A DNA stretch of 64,000 nucleotides. It comes from Candidatus Enterousia sp. GTDB lineage: Bacteria; Pseudomonadota; Alphaproteobacteria; Rs-D84. The stretch is from NCBI GenBank assembly GCA_045647355.1, contig JAZRMF010000005.1, positions 101,763 through 165,762 on the forward strand, in the 5' to 3' direction. This document shows, in pieces, positions 8,396 to 43,886 of this stretch (its first letter is position 1; each line of letters opens with the position of its first letter). The notes under the pieces were generated by a model that was not told where the DNA came from, did not search any database, and saw nothing but the letters and a program-made list of their open reading frames with translations. Position numbers and translations under genes: made by a program.

Positions 8396-8480
8396 TGGTG
8401 GCCCTGGTCGGACTTGAACCGACACTCCTTGCGGAACTTGATTTTGAGTCAAGCGCGTCTACCAATTCCACCACAGGGCC
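8396..8480 (-). tRNA. tRNA-Leu (anticodon CAA)
   Basis: minus-strand cloverleaf: acceptor GGCCCTG/CAGGGCC + A + CCA, anticodon loop CTCAAAA, long variable arm, T-loop GGTTCAAGTCC; 85 nt. Confidence 0.85.
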
Positions 8481-8492
8481 ATTGGCAAAGAA

Positions 8493-8861: not shown

Positions 8862-8940
8862 ATTTAAATCCTTTAATCACTGCGGCATAATTTATAACAA
8901 AAAAGCCAAAAAGTCAAGTGTTGTTTTATATTTTATTTAT

Positions 8941-10371: not shown

Positions 10372-10470
10372 ATTTTTGCCCCTTTGGGTTTGTTTTCCGT
10401 GGTCTTGAAAAACATTACGACCGCGACTATATATACGTTAACCAAGAACTATTATAAGAGGCAATGAATT

Positions 10471-12528
10471 ATGAATCCAGAAGAAATACAAGAAACACCG
10501 CAGCAAGCGATTGAAAAGTATACGACCGATTTTACTAAATTGGCCGCGGATGGAAAACTGGACCCGGTGATTGGGCGTGATGAAGAAATTCGCCGCACTA
10601 TCCAGGTTCTATCACGCCGGACGAAAAACAATCCGGTTCTTATTGGCAGCCCCGGTGTCGGTAAAACCGCAATTGTCGAAGGTTTGGCGGAACGTATCAT
10701 TTCACGTGATATTCCGGAAAACCTGCAGAACAAAAAATTGCTGTCGTTGGATATGGGCGCATTGATGGCGGGCGCGATGTTCCGCGGTCAATTTGAAGGC
10801 CGTTTTAAGGCGATTTTAAAAGCCGTCAAAGATTCCAATGGCGAAATTATCTTGTTCATTGATGAATTACACACGTTGGTTGGTGCCGGTAAAGGTGAAG
10901 GCAGTATGGATGCCGGGAACCTTATTAAGCCAATGTTGGCACGTGGGGAATTGCACTGTTTAGGGGCAACCACGTTGGATGAATATCGCCAATATATTGA
11001 AAAAGACCCTGCACTGGCGCGGCGTTTTCAACCGGTCTATATTGATGAACCGACCGTTGACGATACTATTTCCATCCTGCGTGGATTAAAAGAAAAATAC
11101 GAAGGTCACCATGGTGTGCGTATTGCCGATGCCGCATTGGTCGCGGCGGTGCGGTTATCTAATCGTTATATTACCGACCGGTTTTTGCCAGACAAGGCAA
11201 TAGACCTTATGGACGAAGCGGCCGCCCGCGTACGTATGGAGGTTGCGTCCAAACCCGAAGATTTGGATGAAGTCGATCGTCATATAATGCAGTTGAAAAT
11301 CGAACAACAAGCCTTAAAAAAAGAAAAAGACGAAGAATCTAAAAAACGTTTGGTGGAATTAGAAAAACTGATTGCGGGCTTGGAAGAAAAGTCCAAAAAG
11401 ATGACCGCCGACTGGCGCGCCGAACAAGATAAAATGCGTGCGCTGTCTGATGCAATGGCCGCATTGGATGCCGCCAAGGCCGAGGTCGCGTCCGCAATGC
11501 GTAATGGTGATTATGAAAAGGCATCTGCCTTGCAATATGGCAAGATTCCAAGTTTGGAAGAAAACATAAAAAAGATGAATACGGAATCGCGTGAGTACAA
11601 GACGGTTTTACCAGAACACATTGCCGCGGTCGTTAGCAAGTGGACTGGGGTCCCCGCCGATAAATTGAGTGCAACCGAACAATCAAAATTGTTAAATATC
11701 GAAGACGAACTGCGCAAACGTGTTGTTGGTCAAGACGAAGCATTGTCGGTTGTCGCGCGTGCAATACGTCGTTCACGTGCGGGGCTTTCCGACCCACGCA
11801 GACCATCGGGCAGTTTTATGTTCTTGGGGCCTACGGGCGTTGGTAAGACCGAAGTCGCCAAAGCATTGGCGGAATACCTGTTCAATGACGATACGGCAAT
11901 GACGCGTATTGATATGAGTGAATATATGGAACCGCATTCGGTTGCCCGTTTAATCGGCAGTCCCCCGGGATACGTCGGTTATGAACAGGGTGGTACACTG
12001 ACCGAAAGTGTACGTCGCCGCCCGTACCAGGTGTTACTGTTTGATGAAATTGAAAAGGCGCATCCAGATGTGTTCAATGTGTTCTTGCAGATACTGGACG
12101 ATGGGCGATTGACCGATGGCCAGGGGCACATTGTGAATTTCACAAATACAATTATCATTATGACAAGTAACTTGCCAAGTATGGATGCGGTTAAAAAGCA
12201 TTTCCGTCCAGAATTCATTAACCGTATTGATGAAATTGTATTCTTTAACCAGTTGGGCAAAGATGTTATGTCTGGCATTGTGGAAATTCAATTGCGAAAC
12301 CTGCGCGCACGTTTGGCAACGCGTCGAATTGAATTAGATGTAACGGACAAAGCAATCAAATGGTTGGCCGAAAACGGGTACGACCCGGTGTTTGGGGCGC
12401 GTCCATTGAAACGTCTTATTACATCGGCGGTCGAAGATAAAATCGCAGATTTGGTTTTATCAGACACCGTGACCGAAGGCTCAACCGTTTATGTCGATGT
12501 CCATGGCAAAGATTTAACCGTAAAATAA
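10471..12528 (+). CDS. clpB: ClpB-type AAA+ disaggregase lacking the N-terminal domain
   Basis: starts at NBD1 ([10 protein letters not shown], Walker A GSPGVGKT), coiled-coil M-domain, NBD2 GPTGVGKT, sensor-2 GARPLKR; 685 aa vs about 860 for full ClpB. Confidence 0.85.
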
Positions 12529-21143: not shown

Positions 21144-21941
21144 ATGGTGTTTGGTATGAAAAGAATAATTATTATCACAGGGGCCAGTTCAGGTATGGGC
21201 GCAGAATTCGCCCGCCAGATTTATGCCCAAAAATCAACAAATGGCATGGAAATGTGGCTGATTGCGCGCGAAGCCGATAAATTGGCCGAATTCGCCGCAA
21301 CCCTTGCCGGTAAAAATATAACGGTGCGTACATTTGCGTTTGATTTGTCTGGGGCGGATGGTGCAAAACGCGTTAAAGAAATCTTGGATGCCGAAAAAGG
21401 CAAGTTTGTTGTAGATTTACTGATAAACAATGCTGGATTTGGAACATACGGACCATTTGCGGAAACCGACCCTGCGCGTGAAATGGCAATGATAGATTTA
21501 AATTGCACGTCATTGACGGGAATTTGCGGTTTCGTATTGCCACACATGCAACGTGGCTCTCATATAATAAACGTGGCAAGTTTGGCGGCATTTTTGCCAC
21601 TGGGGAATTTTGCGGTATATGCCGCGACAAAATCATACGTATTATCATTTAGCATGGCATTGGCCGCAGAATTAAAAGAAAGTGGCATATCGGTATGCGC
21701 ACTGTGTCCCGGCAGTGTCAGCACCAATTTCGCCAACGTTGCAAGTAATGGCAAACGGCGTGAGGTTCTGCACGGACGCGACCCGCGCAAAGTCGTGGCT
21801 CATTGTCTGCGCGCAAGTCGTCGCGGTCACAAGGTTGCACTGTGGGCACCAAAATGGAAAGTGACGGCATTTCTGTCGCGTTTCATCGGCCGGTATATTG
21901 GTGCACGTTTTACATACCTGTTCAACAAACGCCCACACTAG
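21144..21941 (+). CDS. SDR family short-chain dehydrogenase/reductase
   Basis: TGASSGMG cofactor motif, NNAG, catalytic YAATKSY. Confidence 0.8.
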   Translation: MVFGMKRIIIITGASSGMGAEFARQIYAQKSTNGMEMWLIAREADKLAEFAATLAGKNITVRTFAFDLSGADGAKRVKEILDAEKGKFVVDLLINNAGFGTYGPFAETDPAREMAMIDLNCTSLTGICGFVLPHMQRGSHIINVASLAAFLPLGNFAVYAATKSYVLSFSMALAAELKESGISVCALCPGSVSTNFANVASNGKRREVLHGRDPRKVVAHCLRASRRGHKVALWAPKWKVTAFLSRFIGRYIGARFTYLFNKRPH

Positions 21942-21943
21942 AA

Positions 21944-23395
21944 TTACATAGTTTTTTCAAATCGCCGAACCATTGGGTTCCATTTGACCACTTGGGTTCT
22001 GATACATTCTGCCTGGTATCTCAAAATACTTTCATACAATTCTTGAACGGACTTTGTTGGATTTTTGAACAAGCCATAAATATAATTTACATCCAAATTT
22101 TCGGCCTGGGCCAATTTCAGACAGCCTGCTTGTACCTGCTCGTTTTGATATTTTAATTCTGTAACGGTCATAAAATTATTAATCAATTTTTTCAAATCAT
22201 TATATATCGTTTGTATTTGGGCGCTCGGCTTTTTAAGTTGTTGATACATAGAATCTAATGTCATACCGTTGCCACCGAACCGATAATTTCTGCTGTTGCA
22301 TTCTTCCTTGAACGCGCAGAACAATGCCAACTGTTGAATTGCCGGTGTTTGGTATTTTATATCACCAATATTATCGGGGTGCGTAATTATCGCCTTGCGT
22401 TCAACCCTTTCACCGGGACTTGACGGGTTAATTATATGAATACCGTTTAAATCCTTATAGATTATTGGTTTTTTCGTATTTGTACTATCGTACATATATT
22501 TGATAGCGTGAATATTATCCGACCACCCGACTGCATTTAATCTGAATGTTTCTAATTCTTTTGGGGTTAAACAGGTGCGTTGTTCTTCAACTTTTTTCAC
22601 CAAATCTTCCAGAACCATTTGGGGCCAATAGTCATTAGCACCATAATCATTTTCTATCATGCGTTTTTTATTAATTTGTGACAAACGTAATACACCAAAA
22701 ATCAACGCTTCTACTTCTGCACGCAGTGTTCTATATTGTGGTTTGACCAACAAAATATCTTGGATACTATTTTTGCGTCTGGTATGTACGCATACCCTGT
22801 TCACGATATCTGGATCGGGTGCGTCAATATATTTAATTGCCCGTGGGTCTCTTTCACACACCGTAAATTGCAAGGATACCGATGGTTTCGCACACCGACT
22901 GATTAACCACGGTTTTTCATATAAAACCAATCGTATTTCGGCATCAGGCATTATATTTTCGGCCGGATTTGTTAACTTATTACATTCCAACATGCGTTTC
23001 GTCAAAAAATCCTGTAATTGCCGATATTGCGACATAAAATCTGCGGAATCCCGCATATCACGCAAAACATAAATATACCCATAAACCCTTAGGTCATTTG
23101 CACTATGTTCTGTTTTACATTTTTCAACCAAGTGATGATAATTATCCAAAAAATTTTGCATTTGAAAACAGAGTGCCGATGTGTCCAACTTTTCGGTCAG
23201 TTTGCCAGTTTGTCTGTTGGTTTCGTAAACTGTACACATACGCAATATATCTTTTATTAAATCGCGCAAATTACTATACTTAAAATATTCTTTTTTATCT
23301 GGAAAAACCTCTTTTACATACTCTTTGCGTCTCTCTTTCTCCCACCAGGTCAAATCATTGCTCATATTGGAATCCTTTTGATAGCCATAATTCAT
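21944..23395 (-). CDS. hypothetical protein (no recognisable domain)
   Basis: long ORF, coding-like composition; likely start further in at MSNDLTWW. Confidence 0.4.
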   Translation of the reverse strand: MNYGYQKDSNMSNDLTWWEKERRKEYVKEVFPDKKEYFKYSNLRDLIKDILRMCTVYETNRQTGKLTEKLDTSALCFQMQNFLDNYHHLVEKCKTEHSANDLRVYGYIYVLRDMRDSADFMSQYRQLQDFLTKRMLECNKLTNPAENIMPDAEIRLVLYEKPWLISRCAKPSVSLQFTVCERDPRAIKYIDAPDPDIVNRVCVHTRRKNSIQDILLVKPQYRTLRAEVEALIFGVLRLSQINKKRMIENDYGANDYWPQMVLEDLVKKVEEQRTCLTPKELETFRLNAVGWSDNIHAIKYMYDSTNTKKPIIYKDLNGIHIINPSSPGERVERKAIITHPDNIGDIKYQTPAIQQLALFCAFKEECNSRNYRFGGNGMTLDSMYQQLKKPSAQIQTIYNDLKKLINNFMTVTELKYQNEQVQAGCLKLAQAENLDVNYIYGLFKNPTKSVQELYESILRYQAECIRTQVVKWNPMVRRFEKTM

Positions 23396-23480
23396 AATAC
23401 ACTAAATGTGCAACTTGTCAATATTATCTTGATTTTTCACATAATGCACCTTAGAATGTACCTAACCCAAGGATGACATA

Positions 23481-24077
23481 ATGCCACACTATTATAACCA
23501 AAAGTATCCTTATTTACAGTACAGTTATTGTGATACGGATTGGTTCCATATAATGTTTTCGATTCCACCAAAGTTATTGGCGACCAAATTTGAACAGACG
23601 TTTGGATATGCCCCGAAAAGTTTTTTCGATTGTGGTGCGGCAACGGGTAAAATTGTTATGCTTGCACAAGAGTTGGGGATGGACGCACGCGGAATCGACA
23701 TAAAAGAATATCCACAGCAATCCGACATTCCAAGAGAATTATTTAAAACCGGCAAAATACAAATTAAATCGATACTTGATTGCGAACCGATAAAATCTGA
23801 TTTGGCGTTTTGCAACGGCACGTTAACATACTTTTCCGAAAACGAATTGCCGCATGTATTAGATAAATTCAAATACGTAAAAATGCTCTGTGCAATACAT
23901 AACACAACCGAAGATATTGTGGCGGCACGCAACAATGGTGATGAATTAACCGACCCCAAGAAACCCCGGCTTATTAAACCGCAACAATGGTGGATGGAAA
24001 CATTTGATAAAAATGGATTTAAAACAGAATACGATACTGCATTACAATGTTTCTGCGCCGTGCCACAATCACGATAA
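23481..24077 (+). CDS. putative class I SAM-dependent methyltransferase
   Basis: motif I-like FFDCGAATGKIVMLA; weak. Confidence 0.4.
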   Translation: MPHYYNQKYPYLQYSYCDTDWFHIMFSIPPKLLATKFEQTFGYAPKSFFDCGAATGKIVMLAQELGMDARGIDIKEYPQQSDIPRELFKTGKIQIKSILDCEPIKSDLAFCNGTLTYFSENELPHVLDKFKYVKMLCAIHNTTEDIVAARNNGDELTDPKKPRLIKPQQWWMETFDKNGFKTEYDTALQCFCAVPQSR

Positions 24078-25523: not shown

Positions 25524-25991
25524 TTAATCAGTTGCAGTGCCCTTGATAATTTGTTGAGCATAATATTCAAAACTGGTTGTTTTGCCGTCTTGTAATCTGA
25601 CATCACATTCTTGTTCGGTTTCTGGGTTCAAATACAGCGCCTTGACCATTAATAAATATGCCTTGTAAAACCATTGCCTGGTTTCCGCATCCGGATGCTT
25701 AAACCCGATAATTTCACAACAATAACAAATATGCATATAGAAATGCACCGGGTATTTATTGCGTAATTTTGCAAAGACCGCAACCGCATCTAATGGAATA
25801 TCATCCTGCATAAATTTCGTTTTATCATCGGCGGCATTATTCAATATCGTACAGCGAATTTTTCTAATAACTGTTTTTGACACATCATCATTATAACTGC
25901 CGTCACCACCACGAAGCGCAGTTAAAAGTATACTCTGTTGTTTCATACTGATATTATCATTGAACACCCAGTTTTGTATTACAGAAGCCAT
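25524..25991 (-). CDS. hypothetical protein (last gene of packed operon)
   Basis: starts 1 nt after GT9 gene stop. Confidence 0.4.
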   Translation of the reverse strand: MASVIQNWVFNDNISMKQQSILLTALRGGDGSYNDDVSKTVIRKIRCTILNNAADDKTKFMQDDIPLDAVAVFAKLRNKYPVHFYMHICYCCEIIGFKHPDAETRQWFYKAYLLMVKALYLNPETEQECDVRLQDGKTTSFEYYAQQIIKGTATD

Positions 25992-25992
25992 T

Positions 25993-27513
25993 TTATTTAA
26001 CCTTTTTATAACATGTTAATTTGTGTTTTGCCCCCAAACACTTGCTCAACCAGGCTAAACGTATATTGTGAATTAACGAAAAATGCCATGAACAAAAGTT
26101 GTATGGTATTTTGGGCAGATGATAATTTGGCGATTGAATAAAACGTATAATATCCAATACAGACTTAAAATCTTGCTTCACGTGGCATGGTATTACAACC
26201 GGTAATTGGCATGGGTTGGAACTGCAAAAAGACAACGGAGATTCTGCGGCAAGAGATTGTATAGATAAAGCATCCCAAAAGCCAGATTTAAAAATCACAA
26301 TATTTTTAATGCCGCACTTTGTTGCCACATGCGTCAGTGCGGTATCAGGCGTCACTATTAAATCAATATTATTTAATTGTATCTGATTGATTAAATCATA
26401 AAAGCCATCATCTTTTAATCTTTCCAATTTCAAGACTTTTGACACATTGGCACTAAAATCTTTGGTTTGCGCATCGTGTCCAAACGGAATAATTATACCA
26501 AGATTATTAAAATGCGCCCTAAGTTGTTGAACAAGACAATCCAATTCTGAAATTGACAAACTTTTTTGATCAGAGGAAGAAAATGGATTTATGTAAATAC
26601 GTTTGATTTTGTTTGCCGTTATGTTTCGTGCATGATGCGGGAATATTGGCTTTACCAGGGACGAAACACACCGTTTCATATAAGGGAATATGTTTCCCTC
26701 AGCCAGTAAAACATCCGGAATATTTTTCATTGCAAAATACTGAATAGAATTACCCCGACGAACAAAAAAATAATTACGACTGTTTACTATATATATACCA
26801 TCCTTTGCATAATTGACGGCAAAATCATGAAGCCACGCATCATCTATATCTAACAAATCAGAAAAAACATATATACCATTATCTGGGATGCGCGCCCATG
26901 CATCTAAATCCTTGGCATCATAAAAACCCGATAATTGCCGAAATTGTTTTGATAGCACAACCTTTTTCTTTACGTTAAAAGACCGTGCAAAAACATCCAA
27001 CATATATGTACTTAGAAAAGAATCCCCTATGAAACGGTATAAATCAATATAATATAAAACGTCATGGTTGATGTTTTTTAATTCGCGAGCCAAGGCATGC
27101 CTTAGCCCATATTTGGTTTTGTAAAATTTGGCAACAAAATTCGTATTCTTTTGCAATTTTTGTATTAGATTTGCACGTTGTGCCAATCTTAACTTACCGC
27201 CCCGAATATAATATGATACTTGGAATCCTTGGTATGAAGTTTCAGAACAAATCTTGGTTATAATCGGGAAAGGGTATCCTAAACACATATAATTGTGTGC
27301 ATCTGATGATTTCCGTATTGTGATTACATAGTCAGTTCCAACGGTTATCAAACGGTAATCTATACGATTCTTTTTCATATATCGTACCGCTCGATCACTA
27401 ATACCTATTAACGTTGGTAATTTTTGCTCTAAACAAACAAAAAGCTCCCTGACCTGTTTATCAGACAGAGAGCTTTGTTCGAATTTAGAAACGTTTACGT
27501 GAAACCTAGACAT
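25993..27513 (-). CDS. glycosyltransferase family 9 (heptosyltransferase-like) domain protein with extended N-terminus
   Basis: C-terminal DLIVTPDTALTHVATKCGIKNIVIF and CSSNPCQLPVVIPCH resemble GT9 donor-binding and Cys cluster. Confidence 0.55.
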   Translation of the reverse strand: MSRFHVNVSKFEQSSLSDKQVRELFVCLEQKLPTLIGISDRAVRYMKKNRIDYRLITVGTDYVITIRKSSDAHNYMCLGYPFPIITKICSETSYQGFQVSYYIRGGKLRLAQRANLIQKLQKNTNFVAKFYKTKYGLRHALARELKNINHDVLYYIDLYRFIGDSFLSTYMLDVFARSFNVKKKVVLSKQFRQLSGFYDAKDLDAWARIPDNGIYVFSDLLDIDDAWLHDFAVNYAKDGIYIVNSRNYFFVRRGNSIQYFAMKNIPDVLLAEGNIFPYMKRCVSSLVKPIFPHHARNITANKIKRIYINPFSSSDQKSLSISELDCLVQQLRAHFNNLGIIIPFGHDAQTKDFSANVSKVLKLERLKDDGFYDLINQIQLNNIDLIVTPDTALTHVATKCGIKNIVIFKSGFWDALSIQSLAAESPLSFCSSNPCQLPVVIPCHVKQDFKSVLDIIRFIQSPNYHLPKIPYNFCSWHFSLIHNIRLAWLSKCLGAKHKLTCYKKVK

Positions 27514-28225
27514 TATTGACCAACTTTATAAATTCTTCTTTGGTATATTCTATATCTGGTTGAAAATCCGCATGTGAACCGTTATGAAAAACATAATATG
27601 GTCTGGTGCCAATAACTTTGACCGTGTCACCATTTATATACAGGCTGTCTTCTTCGGGTAATGCCAACACAGGTGTATTTTTTGAATATTCCGTTAAATA
27701 GTCCGTTGCTTTTTTGGTCTTTTCGGCATCTTTGTTTGTATAGTGCGCGGTAAAAGAGAAACCAAAAACGGCATTAAATCCACTGGTATTTGCCAATTTA
27801 ACGTTATTTTCATCCATGTACAAGCAAGAATCTATATCTTGACCAAAAATAATTGCACCCGCACTGCACCCATAAATCACGCCGCCAGCGTTCATATATT
27901 CTGTTAACCAATCAAACGCAGGGCTTGCTTTCAATTCTTGTAATAATTTATACGTATTACCACCGCCAATGAACACACCACCAAAATCAGATATATTTTT
28001 CTCAGATATATCAGACGCAGAACGCAATACCACAATTTCCCCATGCTTTATATTTTTGAATTCGCCCTCTAGCCATGTTTTACAACTTTCATAATTATCA
28101 GTACCGCAATCCCGCGCCAAAGGGATATACAAAAGAGGTTTTGATGCATCCACCAATGATTCAAACAATTTGTTTGGTATAACCGTTTTTTCGGCCCAAC
28201 CGCCACCACATAAAATTAATTTCAT
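27506..28225 (-). CDS. peptidase S51 (dipeptidase E / cyanophycinase-like) family protein
   Basis: GGGNTYKLL and catalytic-Ser context IYGCSAGAII. Confidence 0.6.
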   Translation of the reverse strand: MKLILCGGGWAEKTVIPNKLFESLVDASKPLLYIPLARDCGTDNYESCKTWLEGEFKNIKHGEIVVLRSASDISEKNISDFGGVFIGGGNTYKLLQELKASPAFDWLTEYMNAGGVIYGCSAGAIIFGQDIDSCLYMDENNVKLANTSGFNAVFGFSFTAHYTNKDAEKTKKATDYLTEYSKNTPVLALPEEDSLYINGDTVKVIGTRPYYVFHNGSHADFQPDIEYTKEEFIKLVNNV

Positions 28226-29115
28226 AATATCTCCTTTATACTTTCAGAAAACATTTTAGCCTTGTTTATATAATATTCCACCCTTTTATTAATTTGATAA
28301 TTATTTTTTTCATACCTAAACCACAAATCATACAGCATATAAATAATTGCGTAATTTTTTATGGTTTCCATATCATTATCATTTACGGCACCGATTTGTC
28401 GCATCATATTAAATATTTTCGGACGCGCATATAAAAAACTTGCCGCATCATATAACGGATCAAATGCAATGGGATGATCAATATCTATTACACCTGCCAA
28501 TTTATCGTTGGCATTAAATATGTAATTCTTTTCGTTAGGGTCTAAAATTAAAAACCTGGCATTATCTGTATAGCGGTACTTGTTTGCAAAATATTTTATG
28601 GCAGAATCGATATCAATATCTATTTCGAATAATTTTTGTACTTCGCGGGCTTTCATAACCAGATGTTCCAAATATTCCTGCCATGTATCCACCTGTAATT
28701 TTGTGTCAGCAATCGGTCCAAAAAAATTCAGTTTTATATTATGTGCCAATTTAAAAACGGACATCATTGCAGATACATGATTTGTTGTTAAATCCTCAAC
28801 CGAATAATTATTTCCATATATTCTTTTTTCCGCCAGCACACAATAATTCGGGACAAGTTCCCCAGGACCATATATATGCACAACAGATGCAACCGGCACC
28901 CCAACATTTGCCACCAATTGCAACATATCAGATTCAAATTGAAATCTAGATTTATTTAAGTCTAATCCAAAAGATGAACGCAAAATCTTGTAAATAATTC
29001 CGTCTTTTTCAAATATAGCATGCATATACCCATGCCCAAAATATGTATAGCCATTATCAATGAAATAGCGATAATAAGGTTCCACGGATGGGCTATAAAC
29101 GGAATCTATCGACAT
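28222..29115 (-). CDS. APH/ChoK-like phosphotransferase (kinase-like fold)
   Basis: ILDPNEKN catalytic-loop-like and VIDIDH (DxD) motifs. Confidence 0.45.
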   Translation of the reverse strand: MSIDSVYSPSVEPYYRYFIDNGYTYFGHGYMHAIFEKDGIIYKILRSSFGLDLNKSRFQFESDMLQLVANVGVPVASVVHIYGPGELVPNYCVLAEKRIYGNNYSVEDLTTNHVSAMMSVFKLAHNIKLNFFGPIADTKLQVDTWQEYLEHLVMKAREVQKLFEIDIDIDSAIKYFANKYRYTDNARFLILDPNEKNYIFNANDKLAGVIDIDHPIAFDPLYDAASFLYARPKIFNMMRQIGAVNDNDMETIKNYAIIYMLYDLWFRYEKNNYQINKRVEYYINKAKMFSESIKEIL

Positions 29116-30041
29116 TTGGCAAACGCCTCTTGTACCAAAGGTTTAATATCCGAACCATAATCAGGATACATGGCTTGTATATAAAAATCGATAAGAGCTG
29201 AATAGTCACTAATTTTTGCGTTCATTTCACCATGTATTTTATCGACTGCTTTTATATACTTTTTTAATGTTCTGCCATCCATATGAGATGAATTCGGCAT
29301 AATATTGGAATGTAACATTTCAGATACACATGATATACAATCATAATATTTTAATTCAATTGGTGTATTCGCAACATAAAAATCGTTCAATGGCGATACA
29401 GACATTGTATTTTTTAACGCATATTTTTCCATCAATAGCACTTGCAAAGTTGAAGAACTTTCAATTGCCAAATCTGTACCATTATTTACATATATTGATA
29501 GTACGCATATATTGTTATTTGCATAATAAAATCTGATATTTCTGCCGGTTAGTAAAAAATCGCCACATTGACCAAATTTATTTCTGCACGCATCATCTAC
29601 TATCTGGACATTTTTATACGGTGCCAGAACTTTCAAGAAATCAGCATCGTTACGGTTGACTTTGATTGACAATTTATCAGGGTCAAATTTTACAATATTG
29701 ATAAAAAAATCGTATTGATCCTTTACTATATCTTGCAAGCCCCACAGGTCTTTTAATAATCCGATATTTGTGTATGAAGACGCGTATCGCCCTATTCCGG
29801 GGTCAGTGATATCTGGCAAATATTTTGAATTAACAGATGCTTGAACCAACATGTGCCCGGCATCAGAAATTGGTTTCCCTAGCAAAAATTGTTTAAATAC
29901 ATTCGTGCAAGAACCAATAACAAAAACAGTTGGATCTATTTTTGAATTTAATGGAACGGAAGGTTCTAATGCATAACCACGATTTCCAAAGAAATTCACA
30001 AAATCATCTTGTAATTGATGGTATCTTGCTGTGTATTCCAT
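29106..30041 (-). CDS. alanyl-tRNA synthetase catalytic-domain paralog (standalone, 311 aa)
   Basis: FVNFFGNRGYALEPSVPLNSKIDPTVFVIGSCTNVFKQFLLG parallels AlaRS N-terminus FLDFF.SKGH..V.SSSLVP.NDPTLLFTNAGMNQFK..FLG. Confidence 0.55.
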   Translation of the reverse strand: MEYTARYHQLQDDFVNFFGNRGYALEPSVPLNSKIDPTVFVIGSCTNVFKQFLLGKPISDAGHMLVQASVNSKYLPDITDPGIGRYASSYTNIGLLKDLWGLQDIVKDQYDFFINIVKFDPDKLSIKVNRNDADFLKVLAPYKNVQIVDDACRNKFGQCGDFLLTGRNIRFYYANNNICVLSIYVNNGTDLAIESSSTLQVLLMEKYALKNTMSVSPLNDFYVANTPIELKYYDCISCVSEMLHSNIMPNSSHMDGRTLKKYIKAVDKIHGEMNAKISDYSALIDFYIQAMYPDYGSDIKPLVQEAFAKCR

Positions 30042-30042
30042 A

Positions 30043-30720
30043 CTACATTGCCCCTTGTATTTCCTGTTTTAATATGGAGAAAAATGTTGCCATGCGTTCC
30101 AGACGCAATTTTGCAATTTGTTTTGCGGTTTCTGTAAACATCTTGTCTGGGATATTTACATTTTTTGTTGCAAATTCTATATTCGGTGTATGTTTAGAAA
30201 TATCTATTATTTTGCCAGATGCGGTTCCACCAACCAAATTTGTTTTTATATATTCATCAATATCGCAGTCATTATATATTTCTTGTTTTTGTTCCCCTGC
30301 TATCATATAAGAACGTGCGATTCCTATATTACCTATGACATCCAATTTGTCCGCATCAAACAAAATTTTGGCTTCCATACTTTCTGGAACCAATCCACCC
30401 CTAAAACGGTGTGTTCTGATTGCGGCAGCAACGGCCTGTGCAAACGATGTTGGTTTACCCAAAGATTCCAATATGTCCTGAGCCTGTTGCGCCCCCAATA
30501 TGGCATGATCTATTTTTTGACCATCATGTGGCATATCTTCTTCGGGACGCGCAATATCATGTAACAATGCCGCCGCCTTTAAAACATCCATGTCTACAAT
30601 ACAATTTGGTTCTGTTTGCGCAATTTTTATACAGTTATTATACACCCTAAATGTATGTGACAGGTCGTGAGATGACGATTGTAATTTGTTTTTTACTATG
30701 ACAACTAGTTCATCAAACAT
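30043..30720 (-). CDS. HD-domain phosphohydrolase
   Basis: H...LLHDIARP...H...D metal-binding pattern. Confidence 0.65.
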   Translation of the reverse strand: MFDELVVIVKNKLQSSSHDLSHTFRVYNNCIKIAQTEPNCIVDMDVLKAAALLHDIARPEEDMPHDGQKIDHAILGAQQAQDILESLGKPTSFAQAVAAAIRTHRFRGGLVPESMEAKILFDADKLDVIGNIGIARSYMIAGEQKQEIYNDCDIDEYIKTNLVGGTASGKIIDISKHTPNIEFATKNVNIPDKMFTETAKQIAKLRLERMATFFSILKQEIQGAM

Positions 30721-30736
30721 AGACTTCCCCTTTTTA

Positions 30737-31660
30737 TTATCGCGTTCGTTTTCTTGCCTCTAGCATTGGATATATAGCACAATCTGTACAGCAAGGGCAA
30801 GGTTCTTGTTCCCCAACGACAATTGATTGTCCTGTCAACAACTGTTCTGGTGTTATTTGTTGTGTACTGTATAAACATGGTGAAATTACTCCATTTGGAT
30901 GGACGAAAACGAACGTTTTGCCAGCAAGGCATTTATTTTCGCCATTTTGCATCAACAAATCCAAATGTCCAGTATCTATAAATTGCTTTAAACACATCAG
31001 AAATTCATTATCGCCACAATGTGTCGCAATAAATCTAGAAACTTCTTGCTTTTGCTTTACCGGCACAGATAAATCCATGTCCATATTTTTGTAATATGTA
31101 GATGATTTATCTGCTAGTCTAAAACTAAACATTGCGTTATTTTTGTGCGCAATATCATATACGTGTTGCAGATTTTGCATATTTGCGTTTTCTCTCGATA
31201 ATGTCATGGACAAAGACAAATTAAGATTTGGAATATGCGCCATACGACCCAATACATCTATAACACAATCATAATTGTCTATTCCGCGTAATTTGTTATG
31301 AGTTTCTTTGGTACCTTCAATTGATACACTTAAAATCACCTGTTCAAACATTTTGGCGGCATAGACGCAAATACGATTGATGACATCGGGACGCGTTGCA
31401 TTTGTATTTAAAAACAACCGTTGTAATTTTGGCATACACCCTTTAAGAACCTGGATTATATCAATTAAATCGTTGCGTAAAAAGGGTTCACCCCCCGTTA
31501 AACTTATCGTATCCACCTGGGCAAAACATTGATGCGAAAATAATTTTTCTATTTCTGCGACAGACATTTCGCCATAGAAAGATTTTTCTTTCCATATGTT
31601 ACACATTGTGCAATGGCTGTTACATCTGTTGGTTACCGAAAAAGAAACATTATTTACCAT
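30737..31660 (-). CDS. radical SAM enzyme with C-terminal Cys-rich (SPASM/twitch-like) region
   Basis: CNSHCTMCN (CxxxCxxC), GGEP motif, C-terminal EPCPCCTDC. Confidence 0.75.
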   Translation of the reverse strand: MVNNVSFSVTNRCNSHCTMCNIWKEKSFYGEMSVAEIEKLFSHQCFAQVDTISLTGGEPFLRNDLIDIIQVLKGCMPKLQRLFLNTNATRPDVINRICVYAAKMFEQVILSVSIEGTKETHNKLRGIDNYDCVIDVLGRMAHIPNLNLSLSMTLSRENANMQNLQHVYDIAHKNNAMFSFRLADKSSTYYKNMDMDLSVPVKQKQEVSRFIATHCGDNEFLMCLKQFIDTGHLDLLMQNGENKCLAGKTFVFVHPNGVISPCLYSTQQITPEQLLTGQSIVVGEQEPCPCCTDCAIYPMLEARKRTR

Positions 31661-32771
31661 GTTGCTTTTCCCAATTTAAATTATTTTGCCACACGTATTC
31701 TCTCTGATACGGCTTAAATGAAAAGCATAATGGGCAATAATCACCGCAATTCATACTCTTGCTTTGGTTTGTACATGGGGTTGGATTATCCATATCATGA
31801 TCTGATAATTCGTTCAAATACCCCTCTTCCCATACAATTTTGTCATCATAATATTTTGCGACACAATATTTTGAACTGATTAATCCGGAACAGATTCTAA
31901 TCTGGCCATCAGGATGTATCAACACACGTTCACCCAGTTTTGCTGGACAATATCCATAATATTTTGGATTGCTATCAAATTCTTCTTTCGTCACAAAGTG
32001 GTACGGAATTCGAACGTGGACACCGAATTTGCCTGCGGCAACCTTATCCGCCAAAATATCACGCGCAATTATCCAATCTTCTGGCTTAACAGCGGTGTCT
32101 TCGGTCCATGTATCCATTGGGAAACCATGTTTGAACAACACATGAAAGTTGATATTTCTGACACCAAGATCCTGGGCAAAAAGAATCATATTTTCTATTT
32201 CCAACTGACCGTTTTTATCTTTTTGTAACAACATTGGATGTATACAAGATGTTATGTCAACCGTATACCCCAAATCAACGGCCCGTTTTATATTCTTTTG
32301 ACACTTGTCAAATGCACCCGGTCCACGCAGAAAATCGTTTATTTCTGGACGATGACCATCTATGCTGAACGACACTTCATCTAATGCCTTGATATCATCC
32401 AAATTCAGCATATCGTCTTCAAATTGTCCATTTGTATCCATACGAACATATGAATAACCAATTTGTTTCAATTTTTGTATAAACGTTCCCAAATCTTTGT
32501 GTTCTGGGTCACCATATTTGGATGGTTCGCCACCCATAATTGTTGCCTTACGTGCCCCTAATGTATGCACATCTTCCGCCAAATTGCACATCTGATCCAG
32601 TGGAATTTGCCGTCTGTTATTCATTTTGAAAACCAAATTGGGTTTATACAAGCACTGTTTACAACGCAGATGGCATTCTTCGGTGGTATAAAAGAACACC
32701 TGTTTAACCCGACCATCAAAATAATTAATAAATTTATCTGATATATCATAATGGTATTTTTTATTTGGCAT
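31650..32771 (-). CDS. radical SAM / SPASM-domain enzyme
   Basis: CHLRCKQC (CxxxCxxC), GGEP, C-terminal CTNQSKSMNCGDYCPLC. Confidence 0.75.
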   Translation of the reverse strand: MPNKKYHYDISDKFINYFDGRVKQVFFYTTEECHLRCKQCLYKPNLVFKMNNRRQIPLDQMCNLAEDVHTLGARKATIMGGEPSKYGDPEHKDLGTFIQKLKQIGYSYVRMDTNGQFEDDMLNLDDIKALDEVSFSIDGHRPEINDFLRGPGAFDKCQKNIKRAVDLGYTVDITSCIHPMLLQKDKNGQLEIENMILFAQDLGVRNINFHVLFKHGFPMDTWTEDTAVKPEDWIIARDILADKVAAGKFGVHVRIPYHFVTKEEFDSNPKYYGYCPAKLGERVLIHPDGQIRICSGLISSKYCVAKYYDDKIVWEEGYLNELSDHDMDNPTPCTNQSKSMNCGDYCPLCFSFKPYQREYVWQNNLNWEKQHGK

Positions 32772-33717: not shown

Positions 33718-34737
33718 TTATTTATTATTTGGCAAAATACCTGATATTCCCATGCCACATAATTTGGTATATACTGGACGATTCAACCCCAAGTATTTGC
33801 TAAGGGTGGACGGTTTTTGGTTACACCATAAATCATGATAGGAAACGTTGCCGTTTTTAATCGTCTTTATCAGGCCACTTGGCAATTCGGTGCGCCCGAT
33901 GCACGAAGACAGGTAAACAAAGCACTCGTCATTATCGCCCAAATGTTCACATGCCAATATGCGCGCGTACACGTTCAGTGTTAAATCGGCCTTGCTGGCG
34001 TCTTTGGTCCATGGGCTGCCCCCGCCAATTGGGCACGCGGTGGAATAAAAATCGCACGCCAATTTACGTCCGGTCACACCACAATCGGCAATTGGTCCAT
34101 GATGGGTATAACGCCCCGTGCCGTTTACGATGATATTGGTCGGCCGTGCACCCAAAATATCCTCGATAGCCCCCGTCAGGTCTTCGTCCCGCAACATAGG
34201 AATCGCGACAATCGCGGTTTCTATTTTATCATCGTTCAATGTGATTTGCGTTTTGATATCTAACCCCAGGTTATCTGATTCACGCGCCAATTCATATAGG
34301 GCGTTGTTTAGTTTTTTTGCCAAAAACAGTTTCCTGTTTATTTTGCCCTCACCTTGGCACGCGTATCCAACAAACACACCTTGGTCGCCCCAGCCGTTAT
34401 TATCAACCCCACGGGCAATATCCGCCGATTGCATTCCAATAAGGTTGATTATCTCGATTTTATCCGGCTTAATCGCACAATCCCCCCATATTTTGGCATA
34501 ACGTTCGTCATAGCCGATTTCGGCCAATGCCTGTTTCACATACGTGCCTAAATCGCCGATTGTGGCGTGGCTGGTTATCTCTCCGCCCAGGACAACTGTG
34601 TTGCCCTTGATCATAACCTCGACAGCATATCGAACATTTGGATCTTTGGTAATCATGCGGTCCAAAATAAAGCTTGAAATATAATCGGCTGTTTTATCTG
34701 GGTGTCCCAAAGACACCGCTTCTGCTGTTCTTTGCAT
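33718..34737 (-). CDS. divergent S-adenosylmethionine synthetase (MetK) paralog, 339 aa
   Basis: SLGHPDKTAD, GGEITS, GWGDQGVFVGYA, GPIADCGVTGRK, GGGSPWTKDASK align to MetK motifs but phosphate-loop residues altered and protein about 45 aa shorter. Confidence 0.65.
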   Translation of the reverse strand: MQRTAEAVSLGHPDKTADYISSFILDRMITKDPNVRYAVEVMIKGNTVVLGGEITSHATIGDLGTYVKQALAEIGYDERYAKIWGDCAIKPDKIEIINLIGMQSADIARGVDNNGWGDQGVFVGYACQGEGKINRKLFLAKKLNNALYELARESDNLGLDIKTQITLNDDKIETAIVAIPMLRDEDLTGAIEDILGARPTNIIVNGTGRYTHHGPIADCGVTGRKLACDFYSTACPIGGGSPWTKDASKADLTLNVYARILACEHLGDNDECFVYLSSCIGRTELPSGLIKTIKNGNVSYHDLWCNQKPSTLSKYLGLNRPVYTKLCGMGISGILPNNK

Positions 34738-38557: not shown

Positions 38558-38620
38558 TCAATATCAAATAGCAATGACAAACTATTTATGATACAATTTT
38601 ATGAAAGGATTCTATTAAAC

Positions 38621-39568
38621 ATGAATATTTCAACAGATAAATTGTTACACAATATCGTGATTGATTCGCGACAACAATATGCATTGTACCTTAAAACTAG
38701 GCAAGGTGTGATCGAACAATATGGCGGCAAAAGGACCAGTGATTACACGAATTTTCGTATGGCATCTGTAACAAAACAATTTATATCATTTTGTATTTTA
38801 TTTCTTATACAATCTCGACATATCGGCATAAACACACGATTATCACAAATCTTTGACGACATACCAGAATACATGAAAAGCATCACTATTCGTCATTTAC
38901 TAACTCATACATCTGGCCTTATTGATTACGAAGACAGACCCAAAATCAGCCGCAAACAAATAACAGATAAAAAAGTATTTGAGTATCTAAAAACTTTAAA
39001 ACATGCATATTTTAAACCAGGCACAAAATACAGATACAGTAATAGCGGCTATATTATATTGGGACAAATTATAGAAAAAATATCCAAAAAGAAATTGCCG
39101 GTTTTTGTTCACAACACTATATTAGCTCCCGCGCGTATGCACAACTCTCTCATATACACCCAAGACGTTTCTGTGATAAAAAATCGTGCATATGGACATA
39201 AAATAGACAAAAACAATCGGATAATTATTTGTGATCAAGGTCCTAATACAGCAACCCAGGGCGATGGCGGTCTTTATTCTTCCATACATGATTTGAAAAA
39301 ATACCTATATTTTATTCAGCACAACCCATTGGCATCAAAAATGTTTGTACCGAATATATTACCAAACAGTAAAAACACAGGATACGGATTTGGTTTACGA
39401 ATAATAAAGCACAAGAATTACAAAATTATATACCATTGTGGTGGAACAATAGGAACAAACACTATTGTTGGTTTTATACCACGTTTAGACATTGAATTCG
39501 CATTTATGACATCACTCGACGGCATAGATACTGAAATATTTTTAAGAAATCTTTTGCATTGTTTCTAG
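38621..39568 (+). CDS. serine hydrolase, beta-lactamase/PBP transpeptidase-fold family
   Basis: S-x-x-K motif ASVTKQF, YSN-like YSNSGY; start at MNISTDK with RBS aaagga. Confidence 0.65.
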   Translation: MNISTDKLLHNIVIDSRQQYALYLKTRQGVIEQYGGKRTSDYTNFRMASVTKQFISFCILFLIQSRHIGINTRLSQIFDDIPEYMKSITIRHLLTHTSGLIDYEDRPKISRKQITDKKVFEYLKTLKHAYFKPGTKYRYSNSGYIILGQIIEKISKKKLPVFVHNTILAPARMHNSLIYTQDVSVIKNRAYGHKIDKNNRIIICDQGPNTATQGDGGLYSSIHDLKKYLYFIQHNPLASKMFVPNILPNSKNTGYGFGLRIIKHKNYKIIYHCGGTIGTNTIVGFIPRLDIEFAFMTSLDGIDTEIFLRNLLHCF

Positions 39569-39672
39569 ACAAACAAATATTTTATCTTAATTTTTGCGTT
39601 TTACACGTGGTTTACACGAAGCCATTTTTTGCCCCAAAATGCGGATTTCTGGGACAGACAATTTTTATTTGC

Positions 39673-39769
39673 AAAATGTTCAGAAAGTCCTTGACTTGTG
39701 CGGATTTTAGAGTTATTATATCGCCTGTTATTCGGGCATAGTTCAGTCGGTAGAACAACGGACTGTTAA
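39673..39769 (+). repeat. direct repeat B: tRNA-Asn promoter + 5' 38 nt of tRNA-Asn
   Basis: as repeat A; followed by 275-bp segment shared with repeat C flank. Confidence 0.8.
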
Positions 39770-41275: not shown

Positions 41276-42640
41276 ATGCATAATAACATGCGTATTTTAG
41301 TTGGAATATGCACTGCGTTATTTATGTGGGTGTCTGCTGGATTCGCCGAACAAGTACAAACATTAGAACTAGATGATAAACAAGCGCTGGCATTGGCTAA
41401 CGATCTAGTAAATAAAGGCGATTTAAAGTCTGCTACAAATATTTTAGATGCTGTTATAAAAAGCGAGGATGAAAATGCACGTACAGTCGCATTATTTGAA
41501 ATGGGACGAGTGGCATTGGCTAGACACGATTATGCAACAGCAGAGCAAAATTTTCTGACCATATTGAATTGGTACCCAGAGGCAACATTTGTTCGTATGG
41601 AACTAGCCAAAACTTATTTTGCTGCTGGACAATACAGTAGCGCAGATTTTAATTTCCGTTTGGTACTGGCAGATAAGAGTTTATCTGACAATGAACAAAA
41701 ACTTGTACGGAACTATTTGAATTTAATTCGTAAACAAAGAAATTGGGATGTGTTTGCCAGTTTTTCTGTAGTTCCAGATTCAAACCTTAACTATGCCACA
41801 GGCAGAAGAGAAGAATGTATAAACACGATAGCAGGTACACTTTGTCGTGACTTAGAAGACAAATCGTCTGGGATTGGGTTGCAGTACAGTTTAGGTGGCG
41901 ATTATTACCTTAAATTGACCGACCATTTCGGTATAAAAACCAGTGCAGCTTTATATGCGTTGGATTTTCCAACATCAAAATTTGATGATTACATGTTTTA
42001 TGTGGCCGCAGGACCTCGTTACATAATAGATGGAATTGGCGAATTCAGTATCCAGCCATTTGCACAATTGCGCTGGTACGGCGACGAATATTATGACACT
42101 ATGCCAGGCATACGGGCTGATGCAGATTTTGATTTAACAAAGCGGTTGCATTTGTCTCTAGGGGGATCGTATAGCAGGGATATGTATCGTGACGATTCCT
42201 TGAATAGAATTTTGGGTGGCAACGAATATTCGATATACGTTCAGCCACGTTATTATATCAACAATAAAAGTTTCGTATTTGTAGGTACTGCTTATACGAA
42301 TGTCACAGCAAAACAAAAATCATACGGTAACCATGGGTTAAATTATTCCCTGGGATATTTCGCAGAATTGCCATTGACTTTGACTCTGCTTGCTAGGTTG
42401 GATCTGATACAAACAAGGTATAAAAAATCACAGTATTTTATAATGGAAGACAGTAACCTAGAATACTTCACAAGACGTGATACAACATACAGAACTTGTA
42501 TACGGCTATCAAGTCGTTATTTAGAATACAAGAGGCTTTATCCATCGATAAGCTATACTTACACCAGGCGCAACTCAAATGCTCCTATATACGAATTTGA
42601 CAAGCACAGATTTCAAATAGAGATGAACTACCGTTTTTAA
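41276..42640 (+). CDS. TPR + C-terminal beta-barrel outer-membrane protein, Slam/DUF560-like
   Basis: signal peptide, N-terminal TPR-like helices, C-terminal alternating beta pattern ending ...EMNYRF; about 70% identical paralog at 47313-48650. Confidence 0.5.
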   Translation: MHNNMRILVGICTALFMWVSAGFAEQVQTLELDDKQALALANDLVNKGDLKSATNILDAVIKSEDENARTVALFEMGRVALARHDYATAEQNFLTILNWYPEATFVRMELAKTYFAAGQYSSADFNFRLVLADKSLSDNEQKLVRNYLNLIRKQRNWDVFASFSVVPDSNLNYATGRREECINTIAGTLCRDLEDKSSGIGLQYSLGGDYYLKLTDHFGIKTSAALYALDFPTSKFDDYMFYVAAGPRYIIDGIGEFSIQPFAQLRWYGDEYYDTMPGIRADADFDLTKRLHLSLGGSYSRDMYRDDSLNRILGGNEYSIYVQPRYYINNKSFVFVGTAYTNVTAKQKSYGNHGLNYSLGYFAELPLTLTLLARLDLIQTRYKKSQYFIMEDSNLEYFTRRDTTYRTCIRLSSRYLEYKRLYPSISYTYTRRNSNAPIYEFDKHRFQIEMNYRF

Positions 42641-43559: not shown

Positions 43560-43886
43560 CATTGATTTCGACTGTGATTTTACTAAAAACGACACACAGA
43601 ATATTCTGTGTGTCCCTGTTAGCACTTTACACATGGTCACGCACAAAAAATACACAACAAACAACAAGTTATATTTTACAGGAATCAGGTGCTAATTTTC
43701 ACTTTTTGCTTTCGTGTACGTATATGTGAAAAAATCACACAAAATCACACGCAAGCCGCAGAAAACTGACCCCAAAATTTGTAGTATAAAATATTCAGAA
43801 AGTCCTTGACTTGTGCGGATTTTAGGTATAATATAGGGTCTGTTATTCGGGCATAGTTCAGTCGGTAGAACAACGGACTGTTAAAA
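43560..43886 (+). repeat. direct repeat C: about 330-bp tRNA-Asn upstream region + promoter + 5' 38 nt of tRNA
   Basis: about 90% identical to 49740-50066. Confidence 0.8.

Follow-up and report, generated by a model that had tools for sequence, protein, structure and literature searches.

Gene organization of the operon

This analysis concerns an operon on the minus strand of a 64,000-nucleotide (nt) stretch of DNA from Candidatus Enterousia sp. (contig JAZRMF010000005.1, positions 101,763 to 165,762), which is called the window here and whose coordinates are used below. The open reading frame (ORF) listing showed that eight translationally coupled minus-strand genes fill positions 25524-32771, about 7.3 kb. 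No paper and no curated model describes this cassette, which is a compact biosynthetic operon. The genes, in operon order, and a promoter match in front of them were as follows.

31650..32771, minus strand: rSAM-A, radical S-adenosylmethionine (SAM) enzyme, 373 amino acids (aa), from the ORF listing and Pfam
30737..31660, minus strand: rSAM-B, radical SAM enzyme, 307 aa, from the ORF listing and Pfam
30043..30720, minus strand: HD-domain phosphohydrolase of the YedJ type, 225 aa
29106..30041, minus strand: AlaL, stand-alone protein like alanyl-tRNA synthetase (AlaRS), 311 aa
28222..29115, minus strand: Kin, small-molecule kinase of the APH/choline-kinase fold, 297 aa
27506..28225, minus strand: S51 serine peptidase (PepE/cyanophycinase family), 239 aa
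25993..27513, minus strand: GTL, GT-B fold protein of the glycosyltransferase family 9 (GT9) type, 506 aa
25524..25991, minus strand: P155, all-alpha protein, 155 aa
32849..32877, minus strand: sigma-70-like promoter match TTGACA-17-TAGAAT, 11/12, approximately 78 nt before the start codon of rSAM-A

Read in the same order, the first junction was an overlap of 11 nt; gaps of 16 nt and 1 nt came next, then three overlaps (10, 4, and 8 nt) and a last gap of 1 nt. An initial annotation of this DNA had described eight tightly packed genes on one strand, joined by overlaps of 1-11 nt or gaps of 1-2 nt. All these ORFs were present at the same positions on the minus strand, but the junction between rSAM-B and the HD gene was a 16-nt gap. 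The domain calls for the two radical SAM enzymes, the HD protein, and the S51 peptidase were above the Pfam gathering scores, whereas the AlaRS-like, APH, and GT9 calls were below them. The promoter match lies inside the 131-nt intergenic gap and had the top score within 23-35.5 kb; the promoter scan overall gave no enrichment over shuffled sequences, and the match is only suggestive of a promoter upstream of rSAM-A.

Domain scans of the cassette proteins showed the eight-gene block to be free of transporters, regulators, and membrane proteins, which fits an intracellular product. No riboswitch, T-box, or other Rfam element was found at the window locus, and no riboswitch or T-box at eight related loci. 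Scans with NCBIfam, PADLOC, PHROGs, and Pfam gave no NCBIfam equivalog, PADLOC defence model, or informative PHROGs family for the cassette proteins. With PADLOC-DB v2, the only matches were weak generic pVip matches (23-34 bits) and Cas3-HD matches, and five of the eight cassette proteins, together with both downstream paralogs, had no match at all. Literature searches on rSAM/HD/AlaRS/defence, DUF4254, heptosyltransferase, PheRS/GT9, and SrmL did not find the cassette described. The view of the initial annotation that the combination matches no described pathway was thus borne out, and homology of the whole block to lipopolysaccharide (LPS) core or cofactor synthesis, which was also looked for, was not found.

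Conservation and borders of the operon

Related loci were found through contigs encoding AlaL homologues, and identities were determined by tblastn against the window. The identical eight-gene order and coupling, with unrelated flanks, was present in at least five other genomic contexts: L005/L011 (an Alphaproteobacteria metagenome-assembled genome (MAG) from sheep rumen), L007, L008, L009/L010, and L014-L016 (pig gut). Identity to the window proteins was 82-86% for rSAM-A, 71-81% for HD, 63-77% for S51 and likewise for P155, 52-66% for rSAM-B, 53-62% for AlaL, 44-60% for Kin, and 45-59% for GTL. The dN/dS ratio, determined for three locus pairs, was 0.03-0.20 for each of the eight genes (0.12-0.17 for AlaL). 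This showed purifying selection, so all eight genes, AlaL included, are functional. The arrangement is far beyond chance, since it recurs in order and coupling in independent contexts. The eight genes are a rare, selectively maintained, and horizontally mobile operon that moves as one block. At E<=1e-30, 1.84e9 representatives yielded just 34 clusters of the rSAM-A family, and AlaL had 10 homologue clusters among 5.8e9 proteins. A phage or plasmid origin of the cassette was considered and rejected: rSAM-A was absent from IMG/VR viral contigs and PLSDB plasmids, and only P155 relatives are phage-borne.

Comparison with a second strain (L001) showed 99-100% identity over 24.0-32.8 kb, 73-88% over 21.5-24 kb, and 87-94% over 33-34.5 kb. 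Only the loci of this species (L001-L004) had the downstream paralogs, the small ORFs of 32.9-33.8 kb, and the genes of the MetK-like, Nudix, NrtR, and ACP-isochorismatase proteins. The initial annotation had named the MetK-like, Nudix, NrtR, and acyl carrier protein (ACP) genes upstream and two paralogs downstream as neighbours. All of them exist, and the two downstream hypotheticals are weakly paralogous, but they are not part of the unit; MetK, NrtR, Nudix, and ACP were rejected as pathway members, since no other locus has them. The MetK paralog (33718-34737, minus strand) is short, with 339 aa and weak central-domain similarity, and is unlinked to the cassette elsewhere. On the other side, the region 21500-24000 is hypervariable relative to L001 and encodes proteins of 483 and 198 aa without a Pfam match, the latter with a SAM-methyltransferase-like GxGxG motif seen by eye only. 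The gene that had been called a methyltransferase (23481-24077, plus strand) exists, but it has no Pfam match and the call depends on a motif read by eye.

Radical SAM enzymes

Both radical SAM proteins are members of the superfamily, with PF04055 (Radical_SAM) scores of 48.3 bits for rSAM-A and 61.9 bits for rSAM-B against a gathering score of 29.5. The CX3CX2C motif was invariant in rSAM-A (C33/C37/C40) and rSAM-B (C13/C17/C20). SPASM or twitch domains were sought as CX9-15GX4C followed by a further Cys cluster, and as a match to PF13186. Both C-termini carry an invariant CX12-13GX4C and a multi-Cys cluster that resemble those of SPASM/twitch domains. By inspection, C275..G289xxxxC294 and C303/333/342/346/349 give rSAM-A seven invariant Cys in a SPASM-like pattern, and the invariant C244..G257xxxxC262 and C288/290/291/294 (CPCCTDC) of rSAM-B appear SPASM/twitch-like. 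The C-terminal Cys clusters that had been noted in both enzymes were therefore confirmed. PF13186 was not reported at E<=0.01 for either protein. Annotation of the subfamilies with hidden Markov models (HMMs), proposed as a check, upheld the radical SAM assignment and gave SPASM proteins as the best NCBIfam matches, but all of these were far below the cut-offs. In PDB profile searches, rSAM-A matched MoaA only, while rSAM-B matched SkfB (8e-13), then CteB, MoaA, and YydG. The viperin model NF038283 scored 27.5 bits on rSAM-A, far below 180, and no viperin was among the 25 best NCBIfam families listed for rSAM-B. The most conserved gene of the cassette is rSAM-A, with 77-87% identity across cassettes. 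A natural fusion protein, P0129, joins a xylose-isomerase-like TIM barrel (PF01261) to an rSAM-A-type domain with 40% identity over the full length.

These matches bear on a possible pathway to a ribosomally synthesized and post-translationally modified peptide (RiPP), in which a precursor peptide would be cross-linked by the SPASM-type pair, freed of its leader by the S51 peptidase, and tailored by the remaining enzymes. The best family matches of the radical SAM enzymes are indeed peptide maturases (ScmF, WgkB, StsB, SkfB, PapB, and CteB), and a peptidase is present. However, no conserved small ORF was found. The ORFs at 32.9-33.8 kb, among which the initial annotation had suggested a search for a precursor, are conserved in no other locus. 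Pfam and NCBIfam scans of the cassette proteins detected no PqqD domain or RiPP recognition element (RRE), and there is no exporter. P155 is a well-folded protein of a phage type rather than a precursor, and the sugar-isomerase fusion, together with the nucleotide-enzyme neighbours of relatives described below, points away from peptides. We therefore regard a RiPP product as very improbable.

AlaRS-like protein, phosphohydrolase, kinase, and peptidase

The N-terminal part of AlaL, about 135 residues (approximately 8-136), resembles the AlaRS catalytic domain, with scores below the cut-offs for both PF01411 (25.0 versus 30.3 bits) and TIGR00344 (21.4 versus 457). Alignment to Aquifex aeolicus AlaRS (1riq) placed an invariant Asn71 (QP[SA][IV]NSK) in the column of the motif-2 Arg (QKCxR). 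The tRNA-binding, editing, and C-Ala domains are missing from AlaL, which has 311 aa in total. An approximate hhalign comparison with Escherichia coli AlaRS aligned just residues 7-58. A by-eye alignment of motif 3 was dropped as evidence, since hhalign covered these residues only. The alaL gene is present in the gut-type cassettes and in the L073 and L083 variants.

The HD protein belongs to the HD-domain family (PF01966, 55.5 bits versus 22), and all metal-binding His/Asp residues are invariant (H18, D19, H54, D55, H72, H104, D122, D124, and D127). PDB profile searches gave 2pq7 (109 bits), YedJ 3gw7 (70 bits), and 5dqv (60 bits), the last of which we take to be Bacillus subtilis YpgQ, a nucleoside triphosphate pyrophosphohydrolase. 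YedJ was the nearest family, and its equivalog cut-off was not reached (84 versus 286). The window copy of Kin scored 21.1 versus 23.2 bits with PF01636 (APH), an environmental orthologue reached 42 bits, and other orthologues also score as APH; the catalytic-loop motif LDPNEKN and the metal-binding motif IDIDH were invariant. The S51 protein is a member of its family (PF03575, 91.4 versus 23.9 bits) with an invariant Ser121-His161-Glu191/192, and it did not reach the PepE equivalog cut-off (65 versus 156).

GTL and P155

GTL consists of a GT9-type GT-B fold at about residues 150-500 and an extra N-terminal domain of about 150 aa. The GT-B fold is closest to GT9, and the best structural matches were WaaC, RfaF, and TibC. 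The PF01075 score was 16.4 versus 22 bits and covered residues 380-409 only, and the orthologues P0018 and P0024 also matched PF01075 weakly. The motif DTALTH was invariant across homologues and presumably corresponds to the GT9 motif DTGxxH of the ADP-sugar donor site; IGD164S is assumed to hold the counterpart of the WaaC catalytic Asp. In a Paceibacterota MAG, the gene of a distant GTL homologue is coupled to genes for a SAM hydrolase and a deoxynucleoside kinase.

P155 gave no Pfam, NCBIfam, or PDB match. Its predicted model is confident and all-alpha (predicted local distance difference test (pLDDT) score 91.8), with an invariant His/His/Glu/Glu/Arg constellation; the invariant residues are W8, Q19, R27, D30, R46, H83, H87, E93, E124, and R132. 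The family is common in phages, with 44 IMG/VR contigs and Rhizobium and Synechococcus phages, and is a phage protein family deserving study in its own right. The relatives (L024-L067, L022, and L023) are stand-alone genes in phage genomes and in a Firmicutes MAG, and those that are phage-borne have no conserved neighbours. In L023, a 139-kb phage-like JGI contig, positions 5786-10531 encode a P155 homologue together with NT5C, an adenylosuccinate-synthetase-like protein, and a Nudix regulator of the NrtR type. The window has a regulator of that type, too, upstream of the cassette.

Variant cassettes and the deep core

Searches with GTL and rSAM-A recovered reduced and divergent versions of the cassette. 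L013 keeps only rSAM-A, rSAM-B, HD, Kin, and GTL and lies beside ribosomal-protein genes. In L019-21 and L070 the set is split into one group with rSAM-A, rSAM-B, HD, S51, and GTL and another with AlaL, Kin, and a DUF4254 protein. The environmental loci L074-L080 and L088 have HD, rSAM-A, DUF4254, rSAM-B, an APH kinase on the opposite strand, and a longer GTL, with DUF4254 inside the operon; the short contig L088 does not reach HD or GTL. Because of these reduced and environmental versions, the deep core is HD, the two radical SAM enzymes, DUF4254, the kinase, and the GT9-like protein, and AlaL, S51, and P155 are accessory. DUF4254 was absent from the window by tblastn.

A gene for an HldE-C-like heptose-1-phosphate adenylyltransferase (TIGR02199, 167-169 versus 181.5 bits) was present only in L073 and L083, and L083 additionally carries a GT2 gene. 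A remnant of the adenylyltransferase gene was seen in L012 (8031-10258; Bacilli MAG VLC_121), where the cassette has decayed to a truncated rSAM-B (42%), the HldE-C-like gene, HD (60%), and the first 73 residues of AlaL. In L085, S51, an Exo_endo_phos phosphoesterase, and rSAM-A lie in a row. At L087 (5526-12168), genes for thymidylate kinase and ThyX come after an rSAM-A relative of 42% identity, beside ABC-3C components (MC5 and CTD9); this may be a different, nucleotide-modifying conflict module. Two further proteins of 635 and 349 aa are encoded in the same L087 region. S51 or S66 peptidases recur across the variants. The contexts with adenylyltransferase, GT2, TIM-barrel fusion, thymidylate kinase/ThyX, Exo_endo_phos, and deoxynucleoside kinase favour sugar or nucleotide substrates over peptide substrates.

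The GT9-like fold and the adenylyltransferase would also suit an envelope or protein glycosylation island. Such an island would transfer an unusual ADP-heptose-like sugar, with kinase and amino-acid decoration, to the LPS inner core or to a surface protein (TibC-like) and so alter the surface, for example phage receptors. This explanation agrees with the WaaC, RfaF, and TibC matches of GTL and with the heptose-1-phosphate adenylyltransferase-like gene in variants. The hosts appear Gram-negative: two Slam genes in the window point to a Gram-negative proteobacterial host, and an AsmA gene is found in L014. In L014, the cassette lies at a tRNA-Gln gene together with DUF4254 and a serine recombinase, and a recombinase at a tRNA gene is also seen in seroconverting elements. 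DUF4254 has been linked to the RfaF heptosyltransferase in Flavobacteria (PMC9425974). However, a glycosylation island leaves unexplained the ligases like aminoacyl-tRNA synthetases (aaRS), the PheRS/SrmL linkage described below, the S51/S66 peptidases, and the nucleoside-kinase, thymidylate-kinase, and ThyX neighbours of relatives, and the cassette has no membrane, flippase, or lipid-linked steps. The decayed copy lies in a Bacilli MAG and the distant GTL homologue in a Paceibacterota MAG; to our knowledge, neither group is expected to make LPS. We consider this explanation unlikely.

Linkage to phenylalanyl-tRNA synthetase and SrmL genes

Genes for phenylalanyl-tRNA synthetase (PheRS) adjoin the cassette in four layouts.

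L075, L079, and L080: pheS-pheT directly upstream
L081: pheST divergent
L076 and L078: monomeric PheS-like genes on both sides; upstream copy in the short contig L074
L019 and L070: pheTS between the two halves

The downstream monomeric PheS-like copy of L076 and L078 was SrmL (NF051887, cut-off 300), which keeps the FDX-ACB anticodon-binding domain and lies beside GTL.

L076:10911-12077, minus strand: SrmL, 445 bits
L078:7910-9043, minus strand: SrmL, 437 bits

In L076, a gene for an S66 peptidase of the LdcA/MccF type and a Nudix gene follow SrmL. In L019 and L070, AlaL-Kin is preceded at a distance of 86 nt by a canonical tRNA-Phe gene, and genes for RtcA, a YbaK-like tRNA_edit protein, and ArgRS are near the cassette in some loci. 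With PheRS genes or SrmL adjoining divergent versions of the cassette, the suggestion of the initial annotation that the product might depend on aminoacyl-tRNA gained support. The tRNA-Phe beside AlaL in L019 was considered as proof of a tRNA link but was downgraded after a recombinase remnant was found beyond DUF4254; this tRNA gene may be an island attachment site.

A hypermodification of tRNA-Phe or of a translation factor could account for this linkage, with AlaL/SrmL, the radical SAM enzymes, and the GT-B protein acting like EpmA/EpmB and EarP on elongation factor P or like GluQRS on tRNA. The pheST or monomeric PheRS genes in four layouts, the FDX-ACB domain of SrmL, the position of the tRNA-Phe gene in L019 and L070, and the RtcA, YbaK-like, and ArgRS genes are all in keeping with it. 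However, neither a PheRS nor a tRNA-Phe gene lies near the cassette of the window or the other full cassettes, the tRNA-Phe of L019 adjoins the recombinase remnant, and AlaL lacks a tRNA-binding domain. Peptidases, a kinase, and an adenylyltransferase would not be expected in a route to a modified macromolecule. Modification of tRNA-Phe or a factor thus appears improbable.

Genomic islands and defence genes

The gut-type cassettes lie in variable islands, and conflict genes are neighbours in most gut contexts.

L014: CBASS (cyclic oligonucleotide-based antiphage signalling system) cyclase and 2TM effector
L009: GmrSD-like Orf5/HEC-06 pair, HipA
L005: AbiLi/AriA-like ATPase, PDC-S02 (Mrr-like), HNH, DUF4238
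L007: OLD-like ATPase, PIN, Nudix/ASCH genes
L019: retron RT_VI

In the window itself, genes for a D12-class and an Eco57I-type DNA methyltransferase lie about 20 kb from the cassette. A tRNA-Asn gene lies 4 kb upstream of the cassette in L009.

These neighbours raise the possibility of a dedicated anti-phage system, in which a radical SAM enzyme would make an antiviral nucleotide analogue (for example a viperin-like chain terminator) and the kinase and HD protein would set its phosphorylation state; this would be compatible with the product that we propose below. CBASS, GmrSD-like, AbiLi/AriA-like, PDC-S02, retron RT_VI, HipA, Mrr, and PIN genes in most gut contexts, the DNA methyltransferase genes of the window, and the phage-typical family of P155 are consistent with such a system, as are the weak pVip HMM matches, the extra radical SAM protein of the environmental variants, whose best match was viperin (83 bits), and the rSAM-A relative beside ABC-3C components in L087. 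However, PADLOC matched nothing beyond generic radical SAM and HD models, and the viperin score of rSAM-A was far from its cut-off. The reduced and environmental versions lie in ordinary chromosomal contexts, beside ribosomal-protein genes in L013 or PheRS genes elsewhere. Eight biosynthetic enzymes with neither sensor nor effector would be unlike known systems, and location in islands, by itself, is no proof of function. On balance a dedicated anti-phage system seems rather unlikely.

The distal part of the window, 38033-64000, has a low guanine-plus-cytosine content of 32-38% and no counterpart in L001, where a 1615-aa YjiV_N/DEAD helicase gene follows the ACP gene. It contains the following genes.

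38588-39568: beta-lactamase-family gene
41276-42640 and 47313-48650: Slam surface-lipoprotein assembly genes
52203-53096 and 53845-55308: D12-class and Eco57I-type DNA methyltransferases
59959-63993: 1344-aa ORF with no Pfam match

A segment of 100-195 nt matching L001:2237-2431 occurs there in three copies (39577-39769, 43788-43884, and 49970-50066), the last of which overlaps a tRNA-Asn gene (50029-50104). The three copies look like attachment-site remnants of tandem island insertions at tRNA-Asn. The Asn at the AlaL motif-2 arginine position, the mobility of the cassette and its defence-rich islands, and the absence of its regular partner DUF4254 go beyond the initial annotation.

Proposed product of the operon

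By analogy with known pathways, the product that we consider most likely, at somewhat less than an even chance, would be an intracellular small molecule of the aminoacylated sugar or nucleoside class. From the folds and motifs we infer the following catalytic roles. The two radical SAM/SPASM enzymes would remodel a sugar or nucleoside skeleton by epimerisation, dehydration, or C-C or heteroatom chemistry. Phosphates would be added by the APH-like kinase and removed by the HD phosphohydrolase of the YedJ type; alternatively, the HD protein might clean up a toxic triphosphate. The GT9-fold transferase would transfer a sugar, heptose-like and ADP-activated, to an acceptor. AlaL and the S51 peptidase would attach and trim an amino-acid moiety, and P155 would be an accessory protein. 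Because related cassettes adjoin genes for PheRS or PheS-like ligases, either the product or its target is probably connected with aminoacylation or translation; the product might be an aminoacyl-adenylate mimic, for example. The initial annotation had offered a modified peptide, an aminoacyl, or a nucleoside-type product; the nucleoside/aminoacyl type fits the comparative data best, but the modified peptide does not, given that no conserved precursor or RRE was found and that an rSAM-A relative is fused to a sugar-isomerase-type TIM barrel.

Several observations weigh against an aminoacylated sugar or nucleoside. No enzyme of the cassette has family-level homology to a characterised pathway enzyme, and the product class is assigned by analogy. 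Enzymes of the SPASM type, as the best NCBIfam and PDB matches illustrate, usually act on peptides. With Asn in motif 2 and about 135 aligned residues, AlaL may not adenylate anything. The window copy is without an adenylyltransferase and DUF4254, and the gut-type cassette has no export gene and no obvious self-resistance gene. PheRS adjoins the cassette neither in the window nor in the other full eight-gene loci, and the tRNA-Phe/pheST neighbourhood of L019, with its recombinase remnant, may be just an attachment site.

A more speculative and doubtful extension is an intracellular conflict system. The operon would then make a glyco-nucleoside that mimics an aminoacyl-adenylate and acts against an aaRS or translation, with PheRS as the prime suspect, or would introduce a new tRNA-Phe modification. 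It might abort phage infection or poison competitors, and DUF4254, SrmL, and the P155 family could be parts or antagonists of the system. A metabolite-based conflict system aimed at aminoacylation has a modest chance of being correct. The repeated placement of the cassette among CBASS, retron, GmrSD-like, and Abi-like genes makes metabolite-based immunity beyond viperins a testable idea, and the unit of about 7.3 kb, with neither regulator nor transporter, is therefore amenable to heterologous expression, metabolomics, and phage-challenge assays. If the operon does make a new aminoacyl- or glyco-nucleoside, several orphan families would gain their first functions: DUF4254, SrmL, the widespread family of phage proteins to which P155 belongs, and AlaL as a stand-alone AlaRS-like protein whose active site is remodelled.

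Comparison with known systems

The ADP-heptose pathway (HldE, GmhB, WaaC/WaaF, and TibC) resembles the cassette only in the logic of GT9, kinase, and phosphatase for the use of ADP-heptose. However, the kinases differ in fold (APH in the cassette, PfkB in the pathway), and the phosphatases are an HD and an HAD protein, respectively. GmhA, HldE, GmhB, and HldD homologues were absent from the window block in the Pfam and NCBIfam scans. GTL has its extra N-terminal domain and lies below the Pfam GT9 threshold, and the cassette is rare and mobile, unlike a core LPS locus. The pVip systems share with it a radical SAM enzyme and a kinase in defence islands and would also share an intracellular modified nucleotide as product, but viperin models were far below threshold (27.5 versus 180 bits, and 26-34 bits in PADLOC) and the cassette radical SAM enzymes carry SPASM-like auxiliary-cluster motifs that viperins lack.

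SrmL is curated in NCBIfam (NF051887) as a 'PheS-related mystery ligase SrmL' with no function assigned, and our literature search found no publication on it. It is absent from the window and sits at the GTL side of L076 and L078, where the gut variants rely on AlaL; the two proteins have no homology beyond the class II fold. Its position beside the environmental cassette variants provides a genomic context for this orphan family.

Minimal nucleoside-analogue clusters offer a further parallel. Oxetanocin/albucidin-type clusters pair a radical SAM enzyme with an HD-domain enzyme, and the oxetanocin radical SAM enzyme is B12-dependent. The 4'-thiothymidine cluster thmABC of Photorhabdus encodes a kinase and an NTPase beside a radical SAM enzyme, and its phosphohydrolase can serve in self-resistance (PMC12691670). 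Like the cassette, these clusters combine a radical SAM enzyme with a kinase and a nucleotide phosphohydrolase. However, their radical SAM enzymes are of other subfamilies, the cassette kinase has the APH and not the deoxynucleoside kinase fold, and five cassette genes have no counterpart. Septacidin, a heptose-nucleoside, is a third parallel, beside thmABC and albomycin, for the enzyme logic of the cassette (PMC9978623).

Albomycin biosynthesis (abm, Streptomyces) uses the radical SAM enzymes AbmJ and AbmM, AbmG of the nucleoside-kinase type, the aaRS-like AbmF, and the cluster-encoded seryl-tRNA synthetase (SerRS) AbmK, which acts as both supplier and resistance protein; AbmF uses the aminoacyl-adenylate from AbmK, and the resulting aminoacyl-nucleoside, which is of the heptose type, is a mimic of an aminoacyl-adenylate (PMC9032320, PMC12691670). 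The cassette differs in that no homology to Abm proteins was found, including in the NCBIfam and PDB searches, and that its aaRS-like protein is AlaRS-like and not SerRS-like. It is without pyridoxal-phosphate enzymes, a siderophore/non-ribosomal peptide synthetase part, and an exporter, and it is a compact mobile operon of Proteobacteria, not an actinomycete biosynthetic gene cluster. Nevertheless, it has two radical SAM enzymes, a kinase, an aaRS-like protein, and heptose-type transferase logic, and aaRS genes lie beside its relatives. If the cassette does make a new aminoacyl- or glyco-nucleoside, it would represent a compact and transferable pathway of gut Proteobacteria to a class that is known mostly from actinomycetes (albomycin, ascamycin, and septacidin).

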